IMG/VR virus record: IMGVR_UViG_2558860161_000001
Direction: 5' to 3' (one strand)
Length of the DNA: 31,894 bases
From: a virus
Taxonomy: Duplodnaviria > Heunggongvirae > Uroviricota > Caudoviricetes
Shown: in pieces, positions 6,688-12,629 of the stretch
Position numbering within the stretch: the stretch's first letter is position 1
Layout: every line of letters begins with the position of its first letter
The notes under the pieces: model-generated
The model's database searches: none
What the model was told of the DNA's origin: nothing
Seen by the model: the letters and a program-made list of their open reading frames with translations, nothing else
Made by a program: the position numbers and the translations under genes

Positions 6688-7596
6688 TTATGCCTCCTGC
6701 CCGTTAATCTCTGGCGTCGGGTCAGTCAGCCATGAAGGGGCGGCGTTGCCTGTCGGCTCGTCCGGCAGGTCAAATGTGGAGCGTAGGCTACGCGCGGTGC
6801 TTTCCAACTGGCAGACCAGACCGGCCATAAAGTCTCTGGGGGTATCAATCATATTTTCAGCACAGTATGCGCACAGGGTCTCAAAGGCGCTGGACAGTCG
6901 AACGGCGATGGCAGATTCCGCCTCAACCGCTAACGCTGTAACTTCCGCACGCAGCTTCTTCACCTCTTCGTCAGGCTTGGGCGGCTGGATACGGGATTTC
7001 TTCTCCAGTTTTGTGGAGAGCGAGTCGATTTTTTCGTTTTTGTCGGCAAGCACGCGCTGTTGTGCTGCGTTGGTTTCGCGGGCTTCACGTAGGGCTTGAC
7101 GCAATTCTCTACAGCTCATGCGGTCGACATCATCTAGTTTCAGACCCGCTACAGTGCCACCATCAGCCAGTTCAGCGAGAGATTCATCATCTTCAGTCAT
7201 CAATTCAAAAAGTTTGGATTTACCCAAATGTGCCAACGTTGGCACATTTGATTTCAGTGCGGGGGATAAGTATTTAGTCGATGCTTGCATCATCCGCACA
7301 GAAGTTCGGTATGGTAAGCCCAACTCATTTTCAAGAATGTTAATAAATTCCCCGTGCGGCTCATTTTCTTTAAGAATTACAAGGCGCTTACCTGCTTCCA
7401 GCATCGCCTCAGCACTCTGTGCCATATAAAACCGTGTTTCGTGAACAATACGATCACGTTCATACGGCAGACCATCACCGAACTGCTGCATGATTTCGAG
7501 GCGATGTTCGGTCATGGCATTAAGACTAACGTTGAGGCCATCACTCAGCGGAGCATCTTCCATTAGTTCAACTGGTTGTGATTTTGTGCGTCCCAT
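6688..7596 (-). CDS. Early protein with DUF3102-like N-terminal domain and central coiled coil
   Basis: Motif AGKRLVILKENEPHGEFINILENELGLPYRTSVRMMQAS resembles the DUF3102 signature (from memory). GGAG Shine-Dalgarno before ATG at 7594..7596. Confidence 0.55.
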   Translation of the reverse strand: MGRTKSQPVELMEDAPLSDGLNVSLNAMTEHRLEIMQQFGDGLPYERDRIVHETRFYMAQSAEAMLEAGKRLVILKENEPHGEFINILENELGLPYRTSVRMMQASTKYLSPALKSNVPTLAHLGKSKLFELMTEDDESLAELADGGTVAGLKLDDVDRMSCRELRQALREARETNAAQQRVLADKNEKIDSLSTKLEKKSRIQPPKPDEEVKKLRAEVTALAVEAESAIAVRLSSAFETLCAYCAENMIDTPRDFMAGLVCQLESTARSLRSTFDLPDEPTGNAAPSWLTDPTPEINGQEA

Positions 7597-7605
7597 TTCA
7601 ACTCC

Positions 7606-7911
7606 TTAGCGACTACCAGCCATAACACGCTGGTTGATTTCATTAATACGATCCTGCGCCCGCGCCATTTCGGTACTGTGCGCCATGGCGATTTGTAAGA
7701 GCTGGACTCCAGGGGCAAAACGCCCGTTATCCAGTTTCAGGGCCAGTCCTTCTTCGATAAGGGTATTGAGCGCCCGATTGATATTCGCCGGGGACTCGCC
7801 CAGAGCTGACGCCAGCTCGCCGTTAGAAACACCGTTCAGAGCGTGACCGCGTAAAGCCTTAAGGACACGCAAAATACGGGTACCTGAGCTTGATGTATTT
7901 GGTTTACTCAT
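7606..7911 (-). CDS. Winged-helix HTH DNA-binding protein (IclR/MarR-like N-terminal domain)
   Basis: TRILRVLKALRGHALNGVSNGELASALGESPANINRALNTLIEEGLA is a typical wHTH pattern. ATGA overlap with the ner stop. Confidence 0.6.
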   Translation of the reverse strand: MSKPNTSSSGTRILRVLKALRGHALNGVSNGELASALGESPANINRALNTLIEEGLALKLDNGRFAPGVQLLQIAMAHSTEMARAQDRINEINQRVMAGSR

Positions 7912-8132
7912 GACGCCTCCTTGAGGATGCCGGGGGTAACTTCTTTGCCTATTGCGACCGAAAGGTCTCGCAAAATCCGATAAGTCAAACGACCGCGTGG
8001 AAGTTCGCTTTTGCCTGCCCAGCGGCTGACAGCCTGGGTGACTGTTCGTGGCTCATAGCCCGCGTTAAGCGCGAACTGGCGCAAGCTACTGCCTCTTTCA
8101 ACCAGCCGTGCCCGAACTTGTTGTTTGTTCAT
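7908..8132 (-). CDS. ner: Ner-like DNA-binding protein (Ner/Nlp family), first gene of the early operon
   Basis: 74 aa from ATG at 8130..8132 (AGGA Shine-Dalgarno upstream). LRQFALNAGYEPRTVTQAVSR resembles the Mu Ner/E. coli Nlp HTH. Confidence 0.7.
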   Translation of the reverse strand: MNKQQVRARLVERGSSLRQFALNAGYEPRTVTQAVSRWAGKSELPRGRLTYRILRDLSVAIGKEVTPGILKEAS

Positions 8133-8176
8133 ATGCACCGTGTTCCTGTTGGGTTATGATGTACTCTATTGGGTCT

Positions 8177-8204
8177 ATTGTACGCACCCGAACGGGTATG
8201 TCAA
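8177..8204 (-). promoter_or_regulatory. Predicted early promoter (Pe): -35 TTGACA, 16-nt spacer, -10 TACAAT, with dyad operator ACCCG-AA-CGGGT in the spacer
   Basis: Reverse complement of 8199..8204 is TTGACA and of 8177..8182 is TACAAT. The inverted repeat at 8186..8197 sits between them. Located about 45 nt upstream of the ner start codon. Confidence 0.55.
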
Positions 8205-8220
8205 ATTGAGATATGTTCAA

Positions 8221-8631
8221 ATGAGTATAAAAGAGAGATTGCGCGAAGCGATGGATGCTAAGAGTCTGACAATTAAGGCATTGTCAGACTTGTCAAAAAT
8301 TCCATATCGCTCACTTCAAAACTATCTGCGTGGAGAGAGAGAACCTAATGCAGAGGCTCTTGTTGCGCTAAGCACCCATTTGAACATATCAATAGATTGG
8401 CTACTTACTGGTAAAGGGGAAGCTGTTGGGGTAGAGAAAGCACAGCCAGCTAATCAGGAGCAGCATTTCAACCAGTCTGATCTGAAGTTATTGGAGCTGC
8501 TCAACCAACTGGAGCCAGAGGTGCGAAAAGAGTTGCTGCGAGGCGCTGAGGAAAAACAGCGAATGATTGATATGGAAAAACAGCTTAAGGAGCTGTCCGC
8601 AGCGTTCGAAAGATTAAAAAATACGGGTTAA
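8221..8631 (+). CDS. XRE-family HTH repressor (CI/c-like immunity repressor, no peptidase domain)
   Basis: N-terminal HTH (LTIKALSDLSKIPYRSLQNYLRGEREP...ISIDWLLTGKG) and C-terminal coiled coil. Divergent from the early operon. ATG at 8221 preferred over the upstream alternative start of the track ORF. Confidence 0.7.
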   Translation: MSIKERLREAMDAKSLTIKALSDLSKIPYRSLQNYLRGEREPNAEALVALSTHLNISIDWLLTGKGEAVGVEKAQPANQEQHFNQSDLKLLELLNQLEPEVRKELLRGAEEKQRMIDMEKQLKELSAAFERLKNTG

Positions 8632-8672
8632 TCTGTTCCTATTAAGAACATTATAGGTATAAGGACATGACT

Positions 8673-9200
8673 ATGCGCAAATTATTTTTACCGTTGATAT
8701 TTGTTTTATCTGGGTGTGGAGATAATACCGATCCTGCTGATACGTCCACCACAGCTAAGGAGCACGCGGTTTTTAGCGTTGAAACAGATAATCCGGTTGT
8801 AAATCGCGAATTACCGTTTATTCGCCAACAACTCCCCGGCCTGGATAAGTACGCGGACAGTTTTGAAAAAGTCGAAGTATCCGAGGATAGCGAACGTCCG
8901 GTGACAACGGTGCAGTTTCATATTAAAGACGAAAATAATATTCCAAGTGACTACATAGCCTCTGGTCATAATTGTTATTTGTTCATATCAAATAATGCCC
9001 ACGAAGTGAAAATATCTAAATCAGCATGTCAGGCTGTTTTTTTCGATAAAACGGATGTTCCTGGTGGAGACCTGACCGTGAAACTTGATAAGGAAAAAGT
9101 TCCTATGACAGATGATGGTAAGACCCCGCGAGCAGGTTGTTTGAAAGCTTATTCACCAGAGCCAGATAATGATTATTGGACTTGTCCAAGGCAGGATTAA
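8673..9200 (+). CDS. Lipoprotein of unknown function (moron; lipobox LSGC)
   Basis: Signal peptide MRKLFLPLIFVLSGC with lipobox Cys. Four further Cys in the mature part. AAGGA Shine-Dalgarno 7 nt before ATG at 8673. Gene and the adjacent repressor are markedly AT-richer (about 40-43% GC by eye) than the rest of the prophage (about 55-60%). Confidence 0.65.
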   Translation: MRKLFLPLIFVLSGCGDNTDPADTSTTAKEHAVFSVETDNPVVNRELPFIRQQLPGLDKYADSFEKVEVSEDSERPVTTVQFHIKDENNIPSDYIASGHNCYLFISNNAHEVKISKSACQAVFFDKTDVPGGDLTVKLDKEKVPMTDDGKTPRAGCLKAYSPEPDNDYWTCPRQD

Positions 9201-9206
9201 ATGTTT

Positions 9207-9233
9207 AGGTGGTGCTGCAGATGCACCACCACC
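9207..9233. terminator. Hairpin between convergent lipoprotein and methyltransferase genes (possible bidirectional terminator)
   Basis: AGGTGGTGC ... GCACCACCT inverted repeat centred on CTGCAG. Weak T-tracts, so termination efficiency is uncertain. Confidence 0.4.
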
Positions 9234-9247
9234 TTTAACTACCTCTT

Positions 9248-10018
9248 TCAAAAATTACAAATTACCAGCTCTTTCTTCGGGCTGGGTTTGCCTGTTACCT
9301 TAAGGTTGTAGCTGATATCAACCGACTGCATGTTCAGACCGTTGAATACCTGCCGCATTTCCGGGATATCGTTCACTGATATAATCATCTTCCCTTTGAT
9401 CCTTCGCGCTAAATCTGCCATGTGATCATAGTTTTCCAGCCCGAACTCCACACCATAGCCTTCCGTTCCCCAGTACGGTGGGTCACAGTAGAACAGCGTA
9501 TGCGGGCGATCATATCGCTCTATGCACTGGTGCCAGTCCAGATGCTCTATCAGCGTTCTCGACAGGCGCAGGTGTGCCATCGACAGTTCTTCCTCAATAC
9601 GCAGCAAATTGAAGCGCGGCGCACTGGTTGTAGAGGTACCGAATGTGTGATCGGCGACCTTGCCGCCAAATGCCTGTTTCTGCAGGTAGTAGAACCGGGC
9701 CGCCCGCTGAATGTCGGTGAGCGTTTCTTCCGGCGTATCCTGCAACCATTTGTAAATCTGACGGCTGACCAGCGCCCATTTGAACTGGCGAATAAATTCT
9801 TCCAGATGATGCTTGACCACCCGATAGAGGTTCACCAGTTCCCCGTTGATATCGTTAATGACTTCGGTCTTGCTGGGAGTCTTTAGGAAATAGAGCGCAG
9901 CTGCCCCGCAGAACGGCTCCACATAGCAGGTATGGGCCGGAAACAATGGTAAAATATGCTTCGCCAGACGACGTTTACCGCCAATCCATGGGACGATGGG
10001 TAAAGATTGTTCTTTCAT
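9248..10018 (-). CDS. Dam-family N6-adenine DNA methyltransferase (orphan, no cognate endonuclease seen)
   Basis: Motifs PWIGGKRRL, VEPFCGAAALYF (AdoMet binding) and DPPY (catalytic), in the D12-class order. Start set to ATG 10016..10018 rather than the TTG at 10042. Confidence 0.85.
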   Translation of the reverse strand: MKEQSLPIVPWIGGKRRLAKHILPLFPAHTCYVEPFCGAAALYFLKTPSKTEVINDINGELVNLYRVVKHHLEEFIRQFKWALVSRQIYKWLQDTPEETLTDIQRAARFYYLQKQAFGGKVADHTFGTSTTSAPRFNLLRIEEELSMAHLRLSRTLIEHLDWHQCIERYDRPHTLFYCDPPYWGTEGYGVEFGLENYDHMADLARRIKGKMIISVNDIPEMRQVFNGLNMQSVDISYNLKVTGKPSPKKELVICNF

Positions 10019-10121
10019 TATCCGTAAGCCTTTTGCAATCAATGAAAATATGGCAGGCTAGTCTGGTCTCGCGAGACTGACTGAACCCTGGTCGGCTCAC
10101 AGTGCATACCTGTGGGTTGAT

Positions 10122-10165
10122 GACCAGCCTGGTGTTACCGCACCGGGCTGGTCGTTCTTTCAAAG
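10122..10165 (+). other. Composite hairpin (GACCAGCC ... GGCTGGTC with inner GGTG/CACC) followed by GTTCTTTC; terminator-like element or small RNA 3' end
   Basis: Inverted repeats at 10122..10129 and 10146..10153 with an inner 4-bp stem, then a T-rich run. Lies in the 247-bp intergenic region between the methyltransferase and the lysis genes. No upstream plus-strand gene explains a terminator here. Confidence 0.35.
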
Positions 10166-10265
10166 CCATCATGCGGTTCACGTCTGCATCCTCACTATTA
10201 ACGCTGTTTAAAATCCCTTTCCCCGACCATTTGTGATGCTGTCTCCACTACACAAGGAGACGCTC

Positions 10266-10616
10266 ATGAAAAACCTGAAAAAATTCATTCCCCCTGTTAA
10301 AAAGCCACGTCTCAGCGGCTGGCTGCTGACCGCTGTGCTGCTGCTCGGCACCATCGGTCTGGTATCGCCCCAGCAGCTGCCGGTGGTTGTCTACAAGCTA
10401 TCACTCATCACGCTGGCGGCAGTATTGGGCTACTGGCTTGACCGTTCGCTTTTCCCCAAAGCCCGTCCCGGTCAGTACCTGAAGCATGATGACAGGCTGA
10501 TGGCTGATGGTCGCTTCCCTGTCCAGACTGGCCTTCACCTGGTCTTTTCTGCTGCGCTAATCCGCCGTGCGCTGATTGTTGCTGCAGTCTGTCTGGCCGT
10601 AGCGATGGGGCTTTAA
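10266..10616 (+). CDS. Membrane protein, first gene of lysis cassette (putative holin)
   Basis: AAGGAGA Shine-Dalgarno 5 nt before ATG at 10266. Three hydrophobic segments. TAATG overlap with the next gene. Confidence 0.5.
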   Translation: MKNLKKFIPPVKKPRLSGWLLTAVLLLGTIGLVSPQQLPVVVYKLSLITLAAVLGYWLDRSLFPKARPGQYLKHDDRLMADGRFPVQTGLHLVFSAALIRRALIVAAVCLAVAMGL

Positions 10617-11353
10617 TGATGACCCTCTATATGTACTGGCCTCAGGTTGTCTGGGCCGTGCTGGTACTGCTGGGGCTGGGCATCGAACTGGCCCGCTACG
10701 GGCAGGCCCGAACGGGTAAGCACAGTTTCTGGTGGCAGCTCTTTGGTTCAGTAACGGTAGCCTGGCTGCTCTGGTGTGGCGGCTTCTTCAGTCAGGCCCG
10801 CGCTGCCCAGCCACCGCAGACCGCGCTGCAGTATCGCGACGATGTGATCCGTAATGCCCGGCTTGAATGGGGAATGTCTGCGCCGGTGGCCGACTTCGCC
10901 GCGCAGCTGCATCAGGAAAGCGGCTGGCGACCTGATGCGGTCTCGCCGGTTGGCGCTCAGGGACTGGCGCAGTTTATGCCCACCACCGCTGACTGGATAA
11001 GTCAGCTGATGCCGGGGCTTAACAGCCGTGAACCGTTTAATCCGTCTTGGGCCATCCGGGCGCTGGTCAGCTATGACCGCTGGCTGTGGCAACGCGTCAG
11101 CGCCGTCAATGACTGCGAGCGTATGGCCATGACGCTGTCAGGCTATAACGGTGGTCTGGGCTGGGTACAGCGGGACAAACGGCTGGCCTCGCAGCAGGGG
11201 CTGGACAGCACCCGCTGGTTTGGTCATGTCGCCACGGTGAATGCCGGACGCAGCACTGCCAACTGGCGGGAGAACCGTCATTATCCGCAGCGCATCCTGC
11301 ACGAACTGGCCCCGCGTTATCTCACCTGGGGAGGCGGCAGCTGTGTGGACTAA
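10616..11353 (+). CDS. Membrane-anchored lytic transglycosylase (SLT-domain endolysin)
   Basis: SLT catalytic motif LHQESGWRPDAVSPVGAQGLAQFMPTTA, preceded by two N-terminal hydrophobic segments in the same ORF. Confidence 0.8.
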   Translation: MMTLYMYWPQVVWAVLVLLGLGIELARYGQARTGKHSFWWQLFGSVTVAWLLWCGGFFSQARAAQPPQTALQYRDDVIRNARLEWGMSAPVADFAAQLHQESGWRPDAVSPVGAQGLAQFMPTTADWISQLMPGLNSREPFNPSWAIRALVSYDRWLWQRVSAVNDCERMAMTLSGYNGGLGWVQRDKRLASQQGLDSTRWFGHVATVNAGRSTANWRENRHYPQRILHELAPRYLTWGGGSCVD

Positions 11354-11996
11354 CCTGCTAAAAAATCTGCCGTGGCGCAGTCTGCTGCTGGCGGTGGTCA
11401 TAAATGCTTTTCTGATTGGGCTTTATTACCTGGGCTACAAAAGCGGGCATGAAAACGCCACGCGCGACGGCGATAAGGCGGTCAGTGAGTTGCAGTCAGC
11501 ATTCGACACGTACAAAACGGAGCAGGCAACGCTTGAGAACGCTGCGTTGCGGGCTTGGGCGAAACGGTATCAGGAACAGGTAGCCGCCGGGCAGCAGGCT
11601 GAAGCCAGTTACCTTGAGCAGATTGCTCAACTGGAGAGCCAGAACAAACAACTACAGGGGCAAATTAACGATGTCACACAGCGCTGGATTGATGAAAAAG
11701 GTAAGAGCCATCCCATTGAGTGCGTGTTTACTCGCGGTTTCGTGCGCCAGTACAACGCCGCGCTCGGATATGACAACGCATCCGTCGACACCGGTCATTC
11801 AGACGCAACTGCCGCCGCTGGCACCGGCACTGGCGCAGCGTCCGGGCAACCTGAAGCCGCTGACGCCTGGCTACGCAACTCAGGCGTCTCCCAGCGTGAT
11901 GTCCTCGCCAACATCATCGACAACGCGAAGCAGTGCCGCATCTGGCGCAGCCAGATAAACGGGATGCTGGACGAACGGGAAGGATTACAGAAATGA
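11343..11996 (+). CDS. Rz-like i-spanin (inner membrane spanin subunit)
   Basis: GTG start at 11343 after GGAGG. N-terminal TM (LLLAVVINAFLIGLYYLGY) then a predicted coiled-coil periplasmic domain. Contains an embedded +1-frame lipoprotein gene. Confidence 0.6.
   Translation: MWTNLLKNLPWRSLLLAVVINAFLIGLYYLGYKSGHENATRDGDKAVSELQSAFDTYKTEQATLENAALRAWAKRYQEQVAAGQQAEASYLEQIAQLESQNKQLQGQINDVTQRWIDEKGKSHPIECVFTRGFVRQYNAALGYDNASVDTGHSDATAAAGTGTGAASGQPEAADAWLRNSGVSQRDVLANIIDNAKQCRIWRSQINGMLDEREGLQK
11692..11958 (+). CDS. Rz1-like o-spanin (outer membrane lipoprotein) embedded in the Rz frame
   Basis: MKKVRAIPLSACLLAVSC lipoprotein signal followed by a Pro-rich mature region (PSTPVIQTQLPPLAPALAQRPGNLKPLTPGY). 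Entirely inside the i-spanin gene in another frame. Confidence 0.55.
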   Translation: MKKVRAIPLSACLLAVSCASTTPRSDMTTHPSTPVIQTQLPPLAPALAQRPGNLKPLTPGYATQASPSVMSSPTSSTTRSSAASGAAR

Positions 11997-12325
11997 CGTT
12001 GCAGGTTGAATTCTGGACGGTGGTGGGCTTTCTCATCACCTTCATGAGCTTTGTCGGCGGTATGGCCAAGTGGCTGTTCAGTAAAGCGGAGGAGCGTCAG
12101 GCGGCGCGGTTCGCCTCTCTTGAGCAGTCGCTGCAACAGTCCGCTTCCAACTGGGGCGAGCTGGAAAAAGAATTTATGCGGTTTAAGGCGGATTTACCGC
12201 TGAACTACGTCCGCCGCGAGGATTACATCCGTGGGCAGACGGTCATCGAGGCCAAGCTGGACGCACTCTACAACAAACTGGAAGTGGTACAGCAGTATCG
12301 TCATACAGGAGGTCACCATGGTTGA
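11993..12325 (+). CDS. Small membrane protein (110 aa)
   Basis: ATG at 11993 overlapping the Rz stop (ATGA). N-terminal TM FWTVVGFLITFMSFVGGMAKWLF. Confidence 0.5.
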   Translation: MTLQVEFWTVVGFLITFMSFVGGMAKWLFSKAEERQAARFASLEQSLQQSASNWGELEKEFMRFKADLPLNYVRREDYIRGQTVIEAKLDALYNKLEVVQQYRHTGGHHG

Positions 12326-12629
12326 TATCGCCCGCGTGCGCCGGGAATCCCTGCGCTGGAGTCTGCTGGTTGCTCTGAACAAAACCCGCCCGTACACCGC
12401 CAGCGAGACGCTGCTGCTGGACGTGTCCCGCGCCATCTACCCGGACACCACTCCGCTGGAGCTGCGCCGTGAGCTGGATTATCTGTCCGACCGCAAGATG
12501 GTTGATCTGGAGAAAAAACCCTCCGGCGACTGGTTTGCCGACCTGACCCGCCTCGGCGTTGACCTGGTGGAATATACCGTGGAATGCGGCCCCGGTATCG
12601 CCCGCCCGGAAAAGTACTGGAGTGAATGA
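12318..12629 (+). CDS. Hypothetical late protein (103 aa)
   Basis: Perfect AGGAGG Shine-Dalgarno 5 nt before ATG at 12318. ATGA overlap with the small terminase start. Confidence 0.55.
   Translation: MVDIARVRRESLRWSLLVALNKTRPYTASETLLLDVSRAIYPDTTPLELRRELDYLSDRKMVDLEKKPSGDWFADLTRLGVDLVEYTVECGPGIARPEKYWSE

Follow-up and report, generated by a model that had tools for sequence, protein, structure and literature searches.

A mobile phage cassette couples an adenine methyltransferase gene to a conserved structured RNA, a possible antisense regulator

Study of the window (the whole stretch of 31,894 nucleotides analysed here, IMG/VR record IMGVR_UViG_2558860161_000001) revealed that the DNA methyltransferase (MTase) gene at positions 9248..10018, on the minus strand, is one half of a self-contained mobile two-gene cassette carried by a BcepMu-like, i.e. 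Mu-like, transposable prophage. The other half is a predicted structured RNA gene of about 100 nt, at 10064..10163 on the plus strand, which lies divergent and antisense to the 5′ region of the MTase gene. Taken alone the MTase is ordinary, and the novelty resides in the RNA that accompanies it. The reading that we prefer, with a probability of about 0.5, is that of a Mom-like, late-expressed mobile anti-restriction cassette which would be kept off in the lysogen by the antisense RNA.

The MTase open reading frame (ORF) starts with an ATG and encodes 256 amino acids. It matches the MethyltransfD12 profile PF02086 with E = 1.2e-27 (97.7 bits against a cut-off of 22) and covers profile positions 1-246 of 253. 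Motif IV, DPPY (residues 179-182), shows no variation among 45-50 members of the family; motif I reads EPFCGAA (residues 34-40), with F36 and G38 conserved and the last G replaced by A, and its location N-terminal to DPPY gives the alpha-class order. The AF2 model of the protein (pLDDT 91.8) has EcoDam (E 1.9e-17, TM 0.79), DpnM and T4Dam as its best Foldseek matches, Mcbe1 being also among the best PDB matches. The initial annotation had described a complete D12-class N6-adenine methyltransferase, and this holds: the protein is an intact D12/alpha-class N6-adenine DNA methyltransferase with a Dam fold. Its dN/dS of 0.075, calculated against the EC958 orthologue, indicates purifying selection. 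The identical gene is found in E. coli O19:H7 730V1 under the RefSeq label ‘DNA adenine methylase’ (WP_000664222.1), a 2,601-bp query (window positions 8100-10700) being 100% identical to that genome, and homologues occur in 443 phage records. A TTG start would lengthen the ORF to 10042; the ATG at 10018 is supported as the start by conservation of the non-coding sequence upstream of it, where the Shine-Dalgarno sequence AAGG (10029..10032, minus strand) lies within a AAAAGGCTTAC block that alignments reveal to be conserved from enterics to beta-proteobacteria.

The setting is the one initially described, between the immunity and lysis modules and on the strand opposite to the late genes. On the left, an HTH repressor gene (8221-8631) is followed by a lipoprotein moron (8667..9200; lipobox LSGC, low GC of 41.6%), both on the plus strand; on the right, a holin gene starting at 10266, an SLT lysin gene and the late genes are all on the plus strand. 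Further away, a Mor-family activator gene matching phrog_532 occupies 297-716 on the minus strand. The lipoprotein belongs to phrog_10002, whose function label is ‘unknown’, and has no Pfam or PADLOC match; its place is taken by other genes in sister phages, and it is not a nuclease and lies outside the cassette. Where the lipoprotein and MTase genes converge, a GC-rich hairpin (9203..9239) lies between them and can fold on both strands (-18.8 kcal/mol, z -3.9, on the plus strand; -21.0 kcal/mol, z -3.5, on the minus strand). It is likely the terminator of the repressor-lipoprotein transcript, with its U-rich tail on the plus strand, and it likely also stops the MTase transcript, if more weakly. 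As claimed at first, no restriction endonuclease partner was found: PADLOC and Pfam searches with 10 proteins (the MTase, its neighbours on the left and ORFs of the early region) gave no restriction endonuclease or defence match, and RefSeq annotates no endonuclease in the part of the prophage that was retrieved. The GC content of the MTase gene is indeed intermediate (50.7%; the window as a whole has 56.2% and its late region 57.9%). Its proposed acquisition separately from the phage core is borne out by this lower GC, by a GATC density that is normal within the gene, unlike in the GATC-depleted phage around it, and by the presence of the same cassette at other positions in unrelated phages, and by sister prophages that are without it.

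The RNA begins with a 5′ hairpin, P0 (GUCUCGCGAGAC), and continues with a helix, P1 (GAAC/GUUC), that closes a three-way junction from which emerge P2 (CGGCUCACAG...CUGUGGGUUG) and P3. The last of these is a GC-rich hairpin that resembles a terminator and leads into a U-rich tail whose U-tract is interrupted. Its minimum free energy is -50.6 kcal/mol (z -4.99). In alignment A2, made with MAFFT, 96.2% of the cells are paired and 12 pairs show compensatory changes, and none of 500 shuffles was as good; in alignment A4 (56 sequences), compensatory changes affect 27 of the 29 pairs. The RNA block is nearly invariant despite saturation of the synonymous sites in the coding sequence, and conservation extends beyond the stems to the loops and the junction. 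When the block is read on the opposite strand, 81% of the cells pair, and there are 111 G-U cells versus 13 A-C cells, an asymmetry that supports assignment of the RNA to the plus strand. An element of the MTase 5′ untranslated region, acting in the MTase sense, was rejected on the same ground (81% of cells paired versus 96% on the plus strand). Our covariance model R1 gives the window RNA a score of 108 bits; Rfam returned nothing at E ≤ 10 for 9900-10400, and Rfam 15 had no match at gathering scores over the whole window. Covariation, structure and strand thus identify it as a real, previously unannotated structured RNA gene. A Com-like ORF upstream of the MTase gene was also considered; the 68-amino-acid ORF at 9975-10181 on the minus strand lacks CxxC pairs and is ruled out as coding by indels in its relatives.

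The interval 10019..10265, initially taken for a simple promoter gap, turned out to hold the RNA gene with a promoter of its own and a motif belonging to the late genes. The RNA promoter is predicted at 10032..10059 on the plus strand from a conserved motif, with a -35-like TTTGCA (10032-10037), an extended -10 TG (10051-10052) and a -10 CAGGCT (10054-10059), and it overlaps, on the other strand, the ribosome-binding region of the MTase gene. In most of 49 diverse copies a TGnTAnnnT element stands 6-9 nt 5′ of the first hairpin, with TAGGCT, TAGCCT, TAGAAT and TAAACT among the -10 variants; T1, A2 and T6 of the -10 are conserved only if read on the RNA strand, and the motif is conserved across gamma- and beta-proteobacterial copies. 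Judged in silico, the RNA possesses what defines cis-antisense RNAs, its own promoter and an intrinsic terminator opposite a target gene. Closer to the holin gene, a probable late promoter of the lysis operon (10198..10214, plus strand) consists of an invariant TTAACGC, 4 nt and a -10 TAAAAT, and has no -35; it presumably depends on the Mor-family activator. Its motif is found upstream of holin whether or not the prophage carries the MTase, and another copy stands upstream of DUF2441 in KP12/TW14425. The CTATTAACGC...TAAAAT sequence was for this reason discarded as a promoter for the MTase, since it belongs to holin/DUF2441 on the plus strand and occurs in MTase-less prophages. No sigma-70-like promoter for the MTase was detected in 10019-10232.

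Linkage of the RNA to the MTase family is near-obligate. The covariance model places the RNA adjacent and antisense to the MTase gene at the majority of the 80 genome loci; it also locates the RNA in phages B3, MuM16-1, TJ1, phiE125, VP882 (NC_009016, 20857-20956 on the minus strand) and AM106, and finds none in one MTase-less sister prophage and none in 50 kb of host chromosome. The two genes travel together in phages of several kinds (Mu-like, lambda-like, telomere, Acinetobacter). An IMG/VR scan seeded with the RNA gave 72 hits, 67 of which have an adjacent and divergent MTase gene; the 5 others match a single hairpin by chance. All the true copies (67/67) keep the same orientation and the same distance to the start of the MTase or com gene. 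A Mu Com-like zinc-finger ORF (CxxC...CxxC) lies between the RNA and the MTase gene in 14 of 86 modules, including those of B3 and TJ1, and none is present in window positions 10019-10232.

One could argue that the RNA does not regulate the MTase but is an independent trans-acting phage sRNA, or mainly a structured terminator or insulator that shields neighbouring operons, and that its linkage to the MTase reflects hitch-hiking within one mobile cassette. E. coli TW14425, where the RNA and its promoter are kept and the MTase is absent, indicates that the RNA might serve another role, and KP12-type phages carry a second, partial copy of the RNA after DUF2441. In the window, moreover, the terminator shares its strand with the repressor operon and precedes the late promoter by 35 bp, and VP882 reportedly encodes a trans-acting sRNA, VpdS (mentioned in PMC13250501). 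We nevertheless find this explanation unlikely, because hitch-hiking does not account for an orientation and distance so strictly kept in unrelated phage types, because in B3 and MuM16-1 the RNA faces the late operon, where an insulator would make no sense, and because sequence is conserved in loops and junction and not in stems alone. A leader or riboswitch for holin was rejected as well: in B3, MuM16-1, phiE125 and VP882 there is no gene downstream on the RNA strand, and in ST131-type phages minus-strand genes intervene before holin.

How the RNA would act in our preferred reading, as an antisense repressor, can be drawn from the geometry of the locus. The RNA starts about 46 bp from the MTase ATG; given this spacing the MTase transcript probably overlaps the RNA, and the MTase mRNA would have to begin beyond the RNA gene, so that its 5′ leader would be fully complementary to the RNA. 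With the RNA promoter placed on top of the MTase ribosome-binding site, antisense pairing and promoter interference could together impose a threshold. In the lysogen, a low level of read-through would produce no enzyme; in lytic growth, strong late transcription would overcome the block, and progeny DNA would be methylated prior to packaging. Methylated progeny DNA would then be shielded from adenine-methylation-sensitive restriction in the next host, the role played by Mom in phage Mu. There is a precedent, as adenine methylases that replace mom in Mu-like prophages block many restriction enzymes (PMC3299994), and it is by this analogy that we attribute a putative anti-restriction role to the MTase.

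Genome organization elsewhere is consistent with late expression. In B3, MuM16-1, TJ1, phiE125 and VP882 the cassette is co-directional with late-type genes (tail, lysis) among which it is embedded, and an MTase promoter of its own would not fit; in these phages the MTase is thus most likely expressed late, by read-through, against which the RNA runs antisense. In the window the cassette is directed away from the late operon, late read-through cannot drive the MTase, and a separate leftward promoter, perhaps activator-dependent, is required. The antisense model also has to face a negative result: no pairing in trans was predicted between the RNA and the region where translation of the MTase or of com begins (median z of -0.1 over 35 modules), which counts against it, as does the interrupted U-tract of the terminator. 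Within the MTase leader, a candidate helix AGCCU/AGGCU that would sequester the Shine-Dalgarno sequence was dismissed (z = 0.13 versus shuffles, no covariation).

P22 sar, lambda oop, IS10 RNA-OUT and the EcoRI antisense RNA are small, structured, constitutively promoted and terminated cis-antisense RNAs, encoded opposite the 5′ region of genes that are harmful if expressed early. None of them is homologous to the window RNA, which differs from them in having a three-way junction whose conservation extends across bacterial classes, and in its link to one methylase family. Another possibility, quite improbable to our mind, is that RNA and MTase form an obligate functional pair, either as a type I/III toxin-antitoxin-like module, in which a promiscuous or host-toxic MTase may be neutralised by the RNA, or because the RNA binds or directs the enzyme. 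Such a pair would explain why a three-way junction, i.e. more than mere complementarity, is kept with the MTase in unrelated gamma- and beta-proteobacterial phages.

The silence in lysogens that the antisense model supposes is documented for two probable orthologues, which were matched to the window gene by position, size and domain and not by sequence or accession. The first is M.EcoMIV (EC958_1101), from prophage Phi2 of E. coli ST131; the BcepMu-like prophage of EC958 has an MTase gene at the same place, with 85% amino-acid identity. Transcription of M.EcoMIV is significantly below that of dam, and no motif was attributed to it (PMC4659465). The second, M.PluTORF3449 (plu3449), is a 771-bp solitary Dam-type gene of prophage P80 in Photorhabdus TT01, with a transcript level of less than 0.001 of gyrB and again no motif (PMC6092372). 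The RNA goes unmentioned in both papers (PMC4659465, PMC6092372). For these two probable orthologues, barely transcribed and adding no motif, the results contradict the initial suggestions that the MTase could be expressed in the lysogen or alter host methylation. Silence is not universal, as the phi1026b homologue reached 21,563 RPKM in a lysogen, in unstranded RNA-seq (PMC2920897). That count, together with the orientation of the MTase gene opposite to the late genes, in a moron-rich zone beside the repressor, is what speaks for a lysogenic role, in which the enzyme would alter host methylation and gene expression or ‘vaccinate’ the host genome. We hold such a role to be very improbable in view of the very low transcription and lack of extra motif in the two methylome/RT-PCR studies of probable orthologues, of the failure to find a sigma-70-like MTase promoter in the 10019-10232 interval, and of the dedicated antisense RNA gene that the MTase gene faces, with its promoter over the ribosome-binding site.

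The name ‘Dam-family’ first given to the MTase is appropriate as far as D12 class and Dam fold are concerned, but not if it implies a GATC-specific Dam. With EcoDam, T4 Dam and DpnM the MTase shares fold (TM of about 0.8 to EcoDam), motif order, DPPY and a GGK motif X, at about 23-25% identity; unlike them it is encoded by a phage and linked with an antisense RNA. It barely passes the TIGR00571 ‘dam’ subfamily model (117.2 bits versus a cut-off of 114.85) and does not reach the Dam equivalog NF008152 (69.8 bits versus 441). When the profile of the MTase family was aligned with EcoDam by hhalign, EcoDam K9, L122, R124 and P134 had no match, P10, K120, A122 and S129 being found instead, and the same was true of N120, R137 and Y138, replaced by G118, T130 and T131. 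All seven EcoDam residues are said to have roles in base contact, as assigned by Horton and colleagues in 2006. The single contact residue kept in kind is Y119, which corresponds to another aromatic, F117, and the recognition hairpin of the MTase is 5 residues shorter than that of EcoDam. Judged by these comparisons, the MTase is no Dam orthologue, and it probably reads its target otherwise than EcoDam reads GATC.

It could still be simply a phage Dam, GATC-specific, which tops up host Dam in rapid lytic replication, with avoidance of MutH nicking or of DpnII-type restriction as examples of what is gained, and for which the RNA would be incidental. The TIGR00571 cut-off is after all passed, if narrowly, the nearest solved structures (EcoDam, DpnM, T4Dam) are all GATC enzymes, and a K/R conserved at position 120 of the hairpin could stand in for R124; T4Dam itself reads GATC with residues partly different from those of EcoDam. 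A GATC enzyme would also be invisible in dam+ methylomes, in keeping with the absence of a new motif. These arguments have to be set against the score far under the equivalog cut-off, the contact residues that fail to align and the shorter hairpin. Furthermore, GATC is strongly depleted in the phage (63 observed versus 152 expected, a ratio of 0.41), which would be needless if the phage methylated its own GATC sites, and REBASE has no predicted site for plu3449, yet predicts GATC for another TT01 prophage enzyme. Finally, the family is common in phages of Pseudomonas, Burkholderia and Acinetobacter, hosts that to our knowledge are without Dam. On balance we see a phage Dam as a possible but doubtful explanation. 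The GTWWAC methylase of Ralstonia/Burkholderia was set aside as a relevant system, for want of any link to the MTase family.

The closest parallel to the Mom-like reading that we favour is provided by the com-mom operon of Mu, with which the cassette shares the logic of a tightly gated late DNA modification. The Mu mom promoter region is reportedly transcribed in both directions, an observation attributed to Sun and Hattman in 1998. The window cassette differs from com-mom in having no Com ORF and in being located between immunity and lysis genes and not at the right end; the chemistry differs too, methylation for the MTase and another adenine modification for Mom. Homologues of the MTase are phage B3 ORF48, phiE125 gp27 and VP882 gp37. 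In B3 the Dam-like ORF48 (64.5% identity) is preceded by ORF47, a Com-like zinc-finger translational regulator annotated as ‘similar to phage Mu Com’, and the same RNA is found upstream of com. Hia5, Hin1523 and Nma1821 are solitary, non-specific, Dam-related adenine methyltransferases that replace mom in Mu-like prophages and confer broad restriction resistance (PMC3299994). B3 ORF48 is absent from the 1000 sequences most similar to Hia5 (PMC3299994) and, by its relation to ORF48, the MTase is unlikely to belong to the Hia5/Hin1523 subfamily, the one for which relaxed specificity is described.

Methylome surveys have repeatedly met intact, silent and motif-less solitary methylases in prophages, for example in EC958, Photorhabdus TT01 and E. 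coli O104/O111. For one large methylase family, the RNA next to the gene may explain this silence in lysogens, a Com-like translational activator being added in some phages, akin to the gating of mom in Mu. If this is true, the RNA would represent a new and widespread phage RNA family, the MTase would be a lytic-phase anti-restriction function and not a lysogenic-conversion gene, and mutating the -10 of the RNA promoter would offer a simple handle to switch such enzymes on and find their specificity. In existing annotations the RNA is concealed by misassigned genes, in B3 by tiny ORFs (ORF45/46) and in VP882 by gp36.

As first written, the observation of a solitary D12-class N6-adenine methyltransferase gene between the repressor and lysis genes is an ordinary one, since the enzyme's family is known and has been catalogued before; what deserves follow-up is the cassette that this gene forms with a structured RNA gene. 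The observation itself stands, and the interpretation given to it in the initial annotation is supported in part. The open reading frame (9248-10018, minus strand) is intact, encodes 256 amino acids and strongly matches Pfam PF02086 across almost its full length, with motif I (residues 34-40) ahead of the DPPY motif (residues 179-182), i.e. in alpha-class order; profile searches with nuclease and defence models gave no match among its neighbours or the early genes. The intermediate GC content was also borne out (50.7%, versus 57.9% for the late genes). An AlphaFold model computed with 50 homologues as input is confident (pLDDT 91.8), its closest solved structures being EcoDam (TM ~0.8), DpnM, Mcbe1 and T4Dam. 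With a dN/dS of 0.075 against the orthologue of E. coli EC958, and an exact protein sequence present on at least 1000 contigs, the methylase is, on sequence criteria, a maintained and functional gene.

When the gap between the methylase and holin genes was aligned across relatives, a block of ~85 bp proved almost invariant, even where synonymous sites of the coding sequence are saturated. The plus strand folds here much better than shuffled sequences (z about -4.9), into a predicted RNA (about 10064-10163, plus strand, as placed by promoter motif and fold) that consists of a 5′ hairpin, P0, and a three-way junction closed by a GAAC/GUUC helix, P1, within which lie an invariant CACAG/CUGUG helix, P2, and a GC-rich, terminator-like helix with a U-rich tail, P3. 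Among 23 diverse enterobacterial copies aligned with MAFFT, the 29 pairs are 96.2% paired and 12 show compensatory changes, shuffled and slid controls all being far worse. The same pairs read on the methylase-sense strand are only 81% paired, with 111 G-U cells versus 13 A-C cells, and this asymmetry indicates that the RNA is transcribed from the plus strand. A TGnTAnnnT motif (TAGGCT, TAGCCT, TAGAAT, TAAACT and others), which as an extended -10 would be meaningful on the RNA strand only, lies 6-9 bases 5′ of P0 in most copies inspected and places the predicted promoter at 10032-10059 on the plus strand. No similar family was found in Rfam 15, the gene is without RefSeq annotation, and it is overlain by small hypothetical ORFs in phages B3 (ORF45/ORF46, 2067-2292 of the extracted locus L008) and VP882 (gp36, 1572-1904 of L094), which may be annotation artefacts. 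The RNA thus appears to be undescribed so far, aside from possible identity of the VP882 copy (NC_009016, 20857-20956, minus strand) with VpdS, a published sRNA of that phage (PMC13250501).

In most of the 80 genome loci, those of beta-proteobacteria included, a covariance model built from 21 copies places the RNA directly 5′ of the methylase or com gene and antisense to it. The model also matches phages B3, MuM16-1, TJ1, phiE125, VP882 and AM106; it gave zero matches in a sister prophage lacking the methylase and in an E. coli chromosomal stretch of 50 kb. Over 56 matches, compensatory changes affect 27 of the 29 pairs, but this alignment was fitted to the model and is therefore biased towards the structure, a bias from which the MAFFT alignment is free. 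When IMG/VR was scanned with the P2 signature as sole seed, 72 contigs matched, 67 of them with a methylase adjoining, divergent and at the expected distance; the remaining five were rejected as chance hairpin matches. Three loci are natural 'mutants' of the cassette: E. coli TW14425 (L091, 3093-3192) has kept the RNA and lost the methylase but for its first 46 bp, Pantoea stewartii (L011, upstream of 3001) has kept the methylase and had the RNA gene replaced from the -10 outwards, and Apirhabdus (L022, 831-930) carries an insertion of ~2 kb between the RNA and a 5′-truncated methylase.

Homologues of the methylase were found by tblastn in 443 phage records. At 55-68% identity they are located at the right end or in the tail region of the Mu-like phages B3, MuM16-1, TJ1 and Bise, after the lysis genes in phiE125/phi1026b, after gpD in the telomere phage VP882, and in Acinetobacter siphophages. 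The B3 gene follows ORF47, a CxxC...CxxC protein annotated as 'similar to phage Mu Com'; of the 86 modules examined, 14 contain a Com-like ORF of this kind, and none precedes the methylase in the window. Drozdz et al. described adenine methylases at the mom position of other Mu-like prophages, which block many restriction enzymes, and they placed B3 ORF48 in a different subfamily (PMC3299994). The cassette sometimes has nuclease neighbours: in phiE125 (L093, 2889-4738) and phi1026b, genes for a hypothetical protein, a PAAR protein and a VRR-NUC nuclease come after the methylase, a set that has been termed a lysogen-expressed 'methylase and restriction-modification moron' (PMC2920897).

The label 'Dam-family' is correct in the broad sense only. 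The protein barely passes the TIGR00571 subfamily model (117.2 for a cut-off of 114.85) and fails the Dam equivalog model (69.8 versus 441). A profile of 45 family members, aligned to EcoDam, has P, G, K, A, S, T and T in place of K9, N120, L122, R124, P134, R137 and Y138, the residues through which EcoDam recognises GATC in its complex with DNA; the hairpin is 5 residues shorter, and the intercalating aromatic (EcoDam Y119, here F117) is the only one retained. A basic residue at position 120, together with S85-R86 and R105, is retained as well, so that a G-containing site, even GATC, is possible. GATC is the most depleted 4-bp palindrome in the window (63 observed versus 152 expected from a Markov model, ratio 0.41), below even CTAG (0.44), and four of the 63 sites cluster within the methylase gene (9398, 9424, 9508 and 9649). 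We consider specificity for GATC unlikely, at about one chance in four.

Many enterobacterial BcepMu-like prophages have the gene between repressor and holin, with varying neighbours. In E. coli ST131 strain EC958 the equivalent place is held by the sole D12 methylase of a BcepMu-like prophage at 1.03 Mb, 85% identical in protein sequence, which fits M.EcoMIV (EC958_1101, prophage Phi2). Transcription of M.EcoMIV was significantly below that of dam, and motif assignment failed (PMC4659465); plu3449 of Photorhabdus TT01 (prophage P80), a solitary Dam-type gene of 771 bp, had a transcript level <0.001 that of gyrB and likewise no motif (PMC6092372). For these closest relatives studied, the proposed expression in the lysogen is therefore contradicted. 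By contrast, reads for the phi1026b homologue are present in a B. pseudomallei lysogen, in unstranded RNA-seq (PMC2920897).

Gating by the antisense RNA would account for the silence of M.EcoMIV and plu3449. The RNA start lies only ~46 bp from the methylase ATG, and these contain the ribosome-binding site, so any methylase mRNA would have to be initiated on the far side of the RNA gene and include the complement of the RNA; the RNA promoter would occupy the methylase initiation region as well. Since the cassette is co-directional among late-type genes in most phages, the methylase there is most likely expressed late, by read-through, against an antisense RNA that is made constitutively. The arrangement could act as a threshold filter, in which leaky transcription in the lysogen would yield no enzyme and strong late transcription would, the likely benefit being that progeny DNA is methylated and so withstands restriction when a new host is infected. 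With the Com-bearing variants added, the arrangement would resemble the layered gating of Mu mom. This working model as a whole is an inference that we hold with moderate confidence; against it count the inversion of the cassette relative to the late operon in the window, which does not suit late read-through, and the retention of the RNA in TW14425 despite loss of the methylase. Two negative results also weaken the model: no trans pairing of the RNA with the methylase initiation region was predicted, and no sigma-70-like promoter for the methylase was found in 10019-10232. The stretch from the SD to the ATG, AAAGGCTTAC(A/G)G (10023-10035, minus strand), is conserved at the nucleotide level in 40+ loci, from E. 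coli to beta-proteobacteria and Vibrio, which seems to exceed the need of an SD or of the RNA promoter.

The motif TTAACGC-N4-TAAAAT (10198-10214, plus strand) was rejected as a methylase promoter, because it belongs to the holin promoter. Its general form, TTAACGC-N4-T(A/T)TA(A/C)(A/T), has a -10-like TAAAAT and no -35. It stands unchanged 5′ of the holin in every BcepMu-like prophage compared and recurs upstream of the DUF2441 moron; in L001 it lies at ~8700-8720 and ~9640-9660. The motif probably marks the Mor-dependent late promoters of the group. Downstream of that moron, KP12-type phages carry the RNA element a second time, as a partial and AT-richer copy of mostly P2 and P3 (L013, 1837-1961; L017, 1370-1494), corresponding in L001 to the DUF2441-holin interval, which suggests that recombination at the element, or its duplication, brought the moron in.

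Gene content identifies the window as a BcepMu-like transposable prophage. Positions 8100-10700 match the E. coli O19:H7 730V1 chromosome at 100% identity, and positions 7500-12500 are 99.6% identical to Escherichia phage Phi06_2974 B and 96.7% to Klebsiella phage KP12. Early-type genes occupy the minus strand (Mor-family activator, gp16, DUF3164, ExeA, DDE transposase, DUF3102, IclR-type HTH and a BcepMu_gp16-like Ner analogue), and the plus strand carries the HTH repressor, then holin, SLT lysin, spanin, DUF3486/terminase, portal and Mu-F-like genes. The left end (~1-290; L003, 3010-4035) adjoins a narU pseudogene that is truncated ('missing C-terminus'), in keeping with insertion of a Mu-like transposable prophage into a host gene, and IS903B lies directly outside it. 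The methylase is flanked by the holin on the right and by a repressor-lipoprotein pair on the left. The lipoprotein gene (8667-9200, plus strand; GC 41.6%, lipobox LSGC) lies directly downstream of the repressor, with which it is probably co-transcribed. It had no match in Pfam or PADLOC and matches phrog_10002, a family without known function; other genes take its place in sister phages. It may be a moron expressed by the lysogen, for example one that serves in superinfection exclusion.
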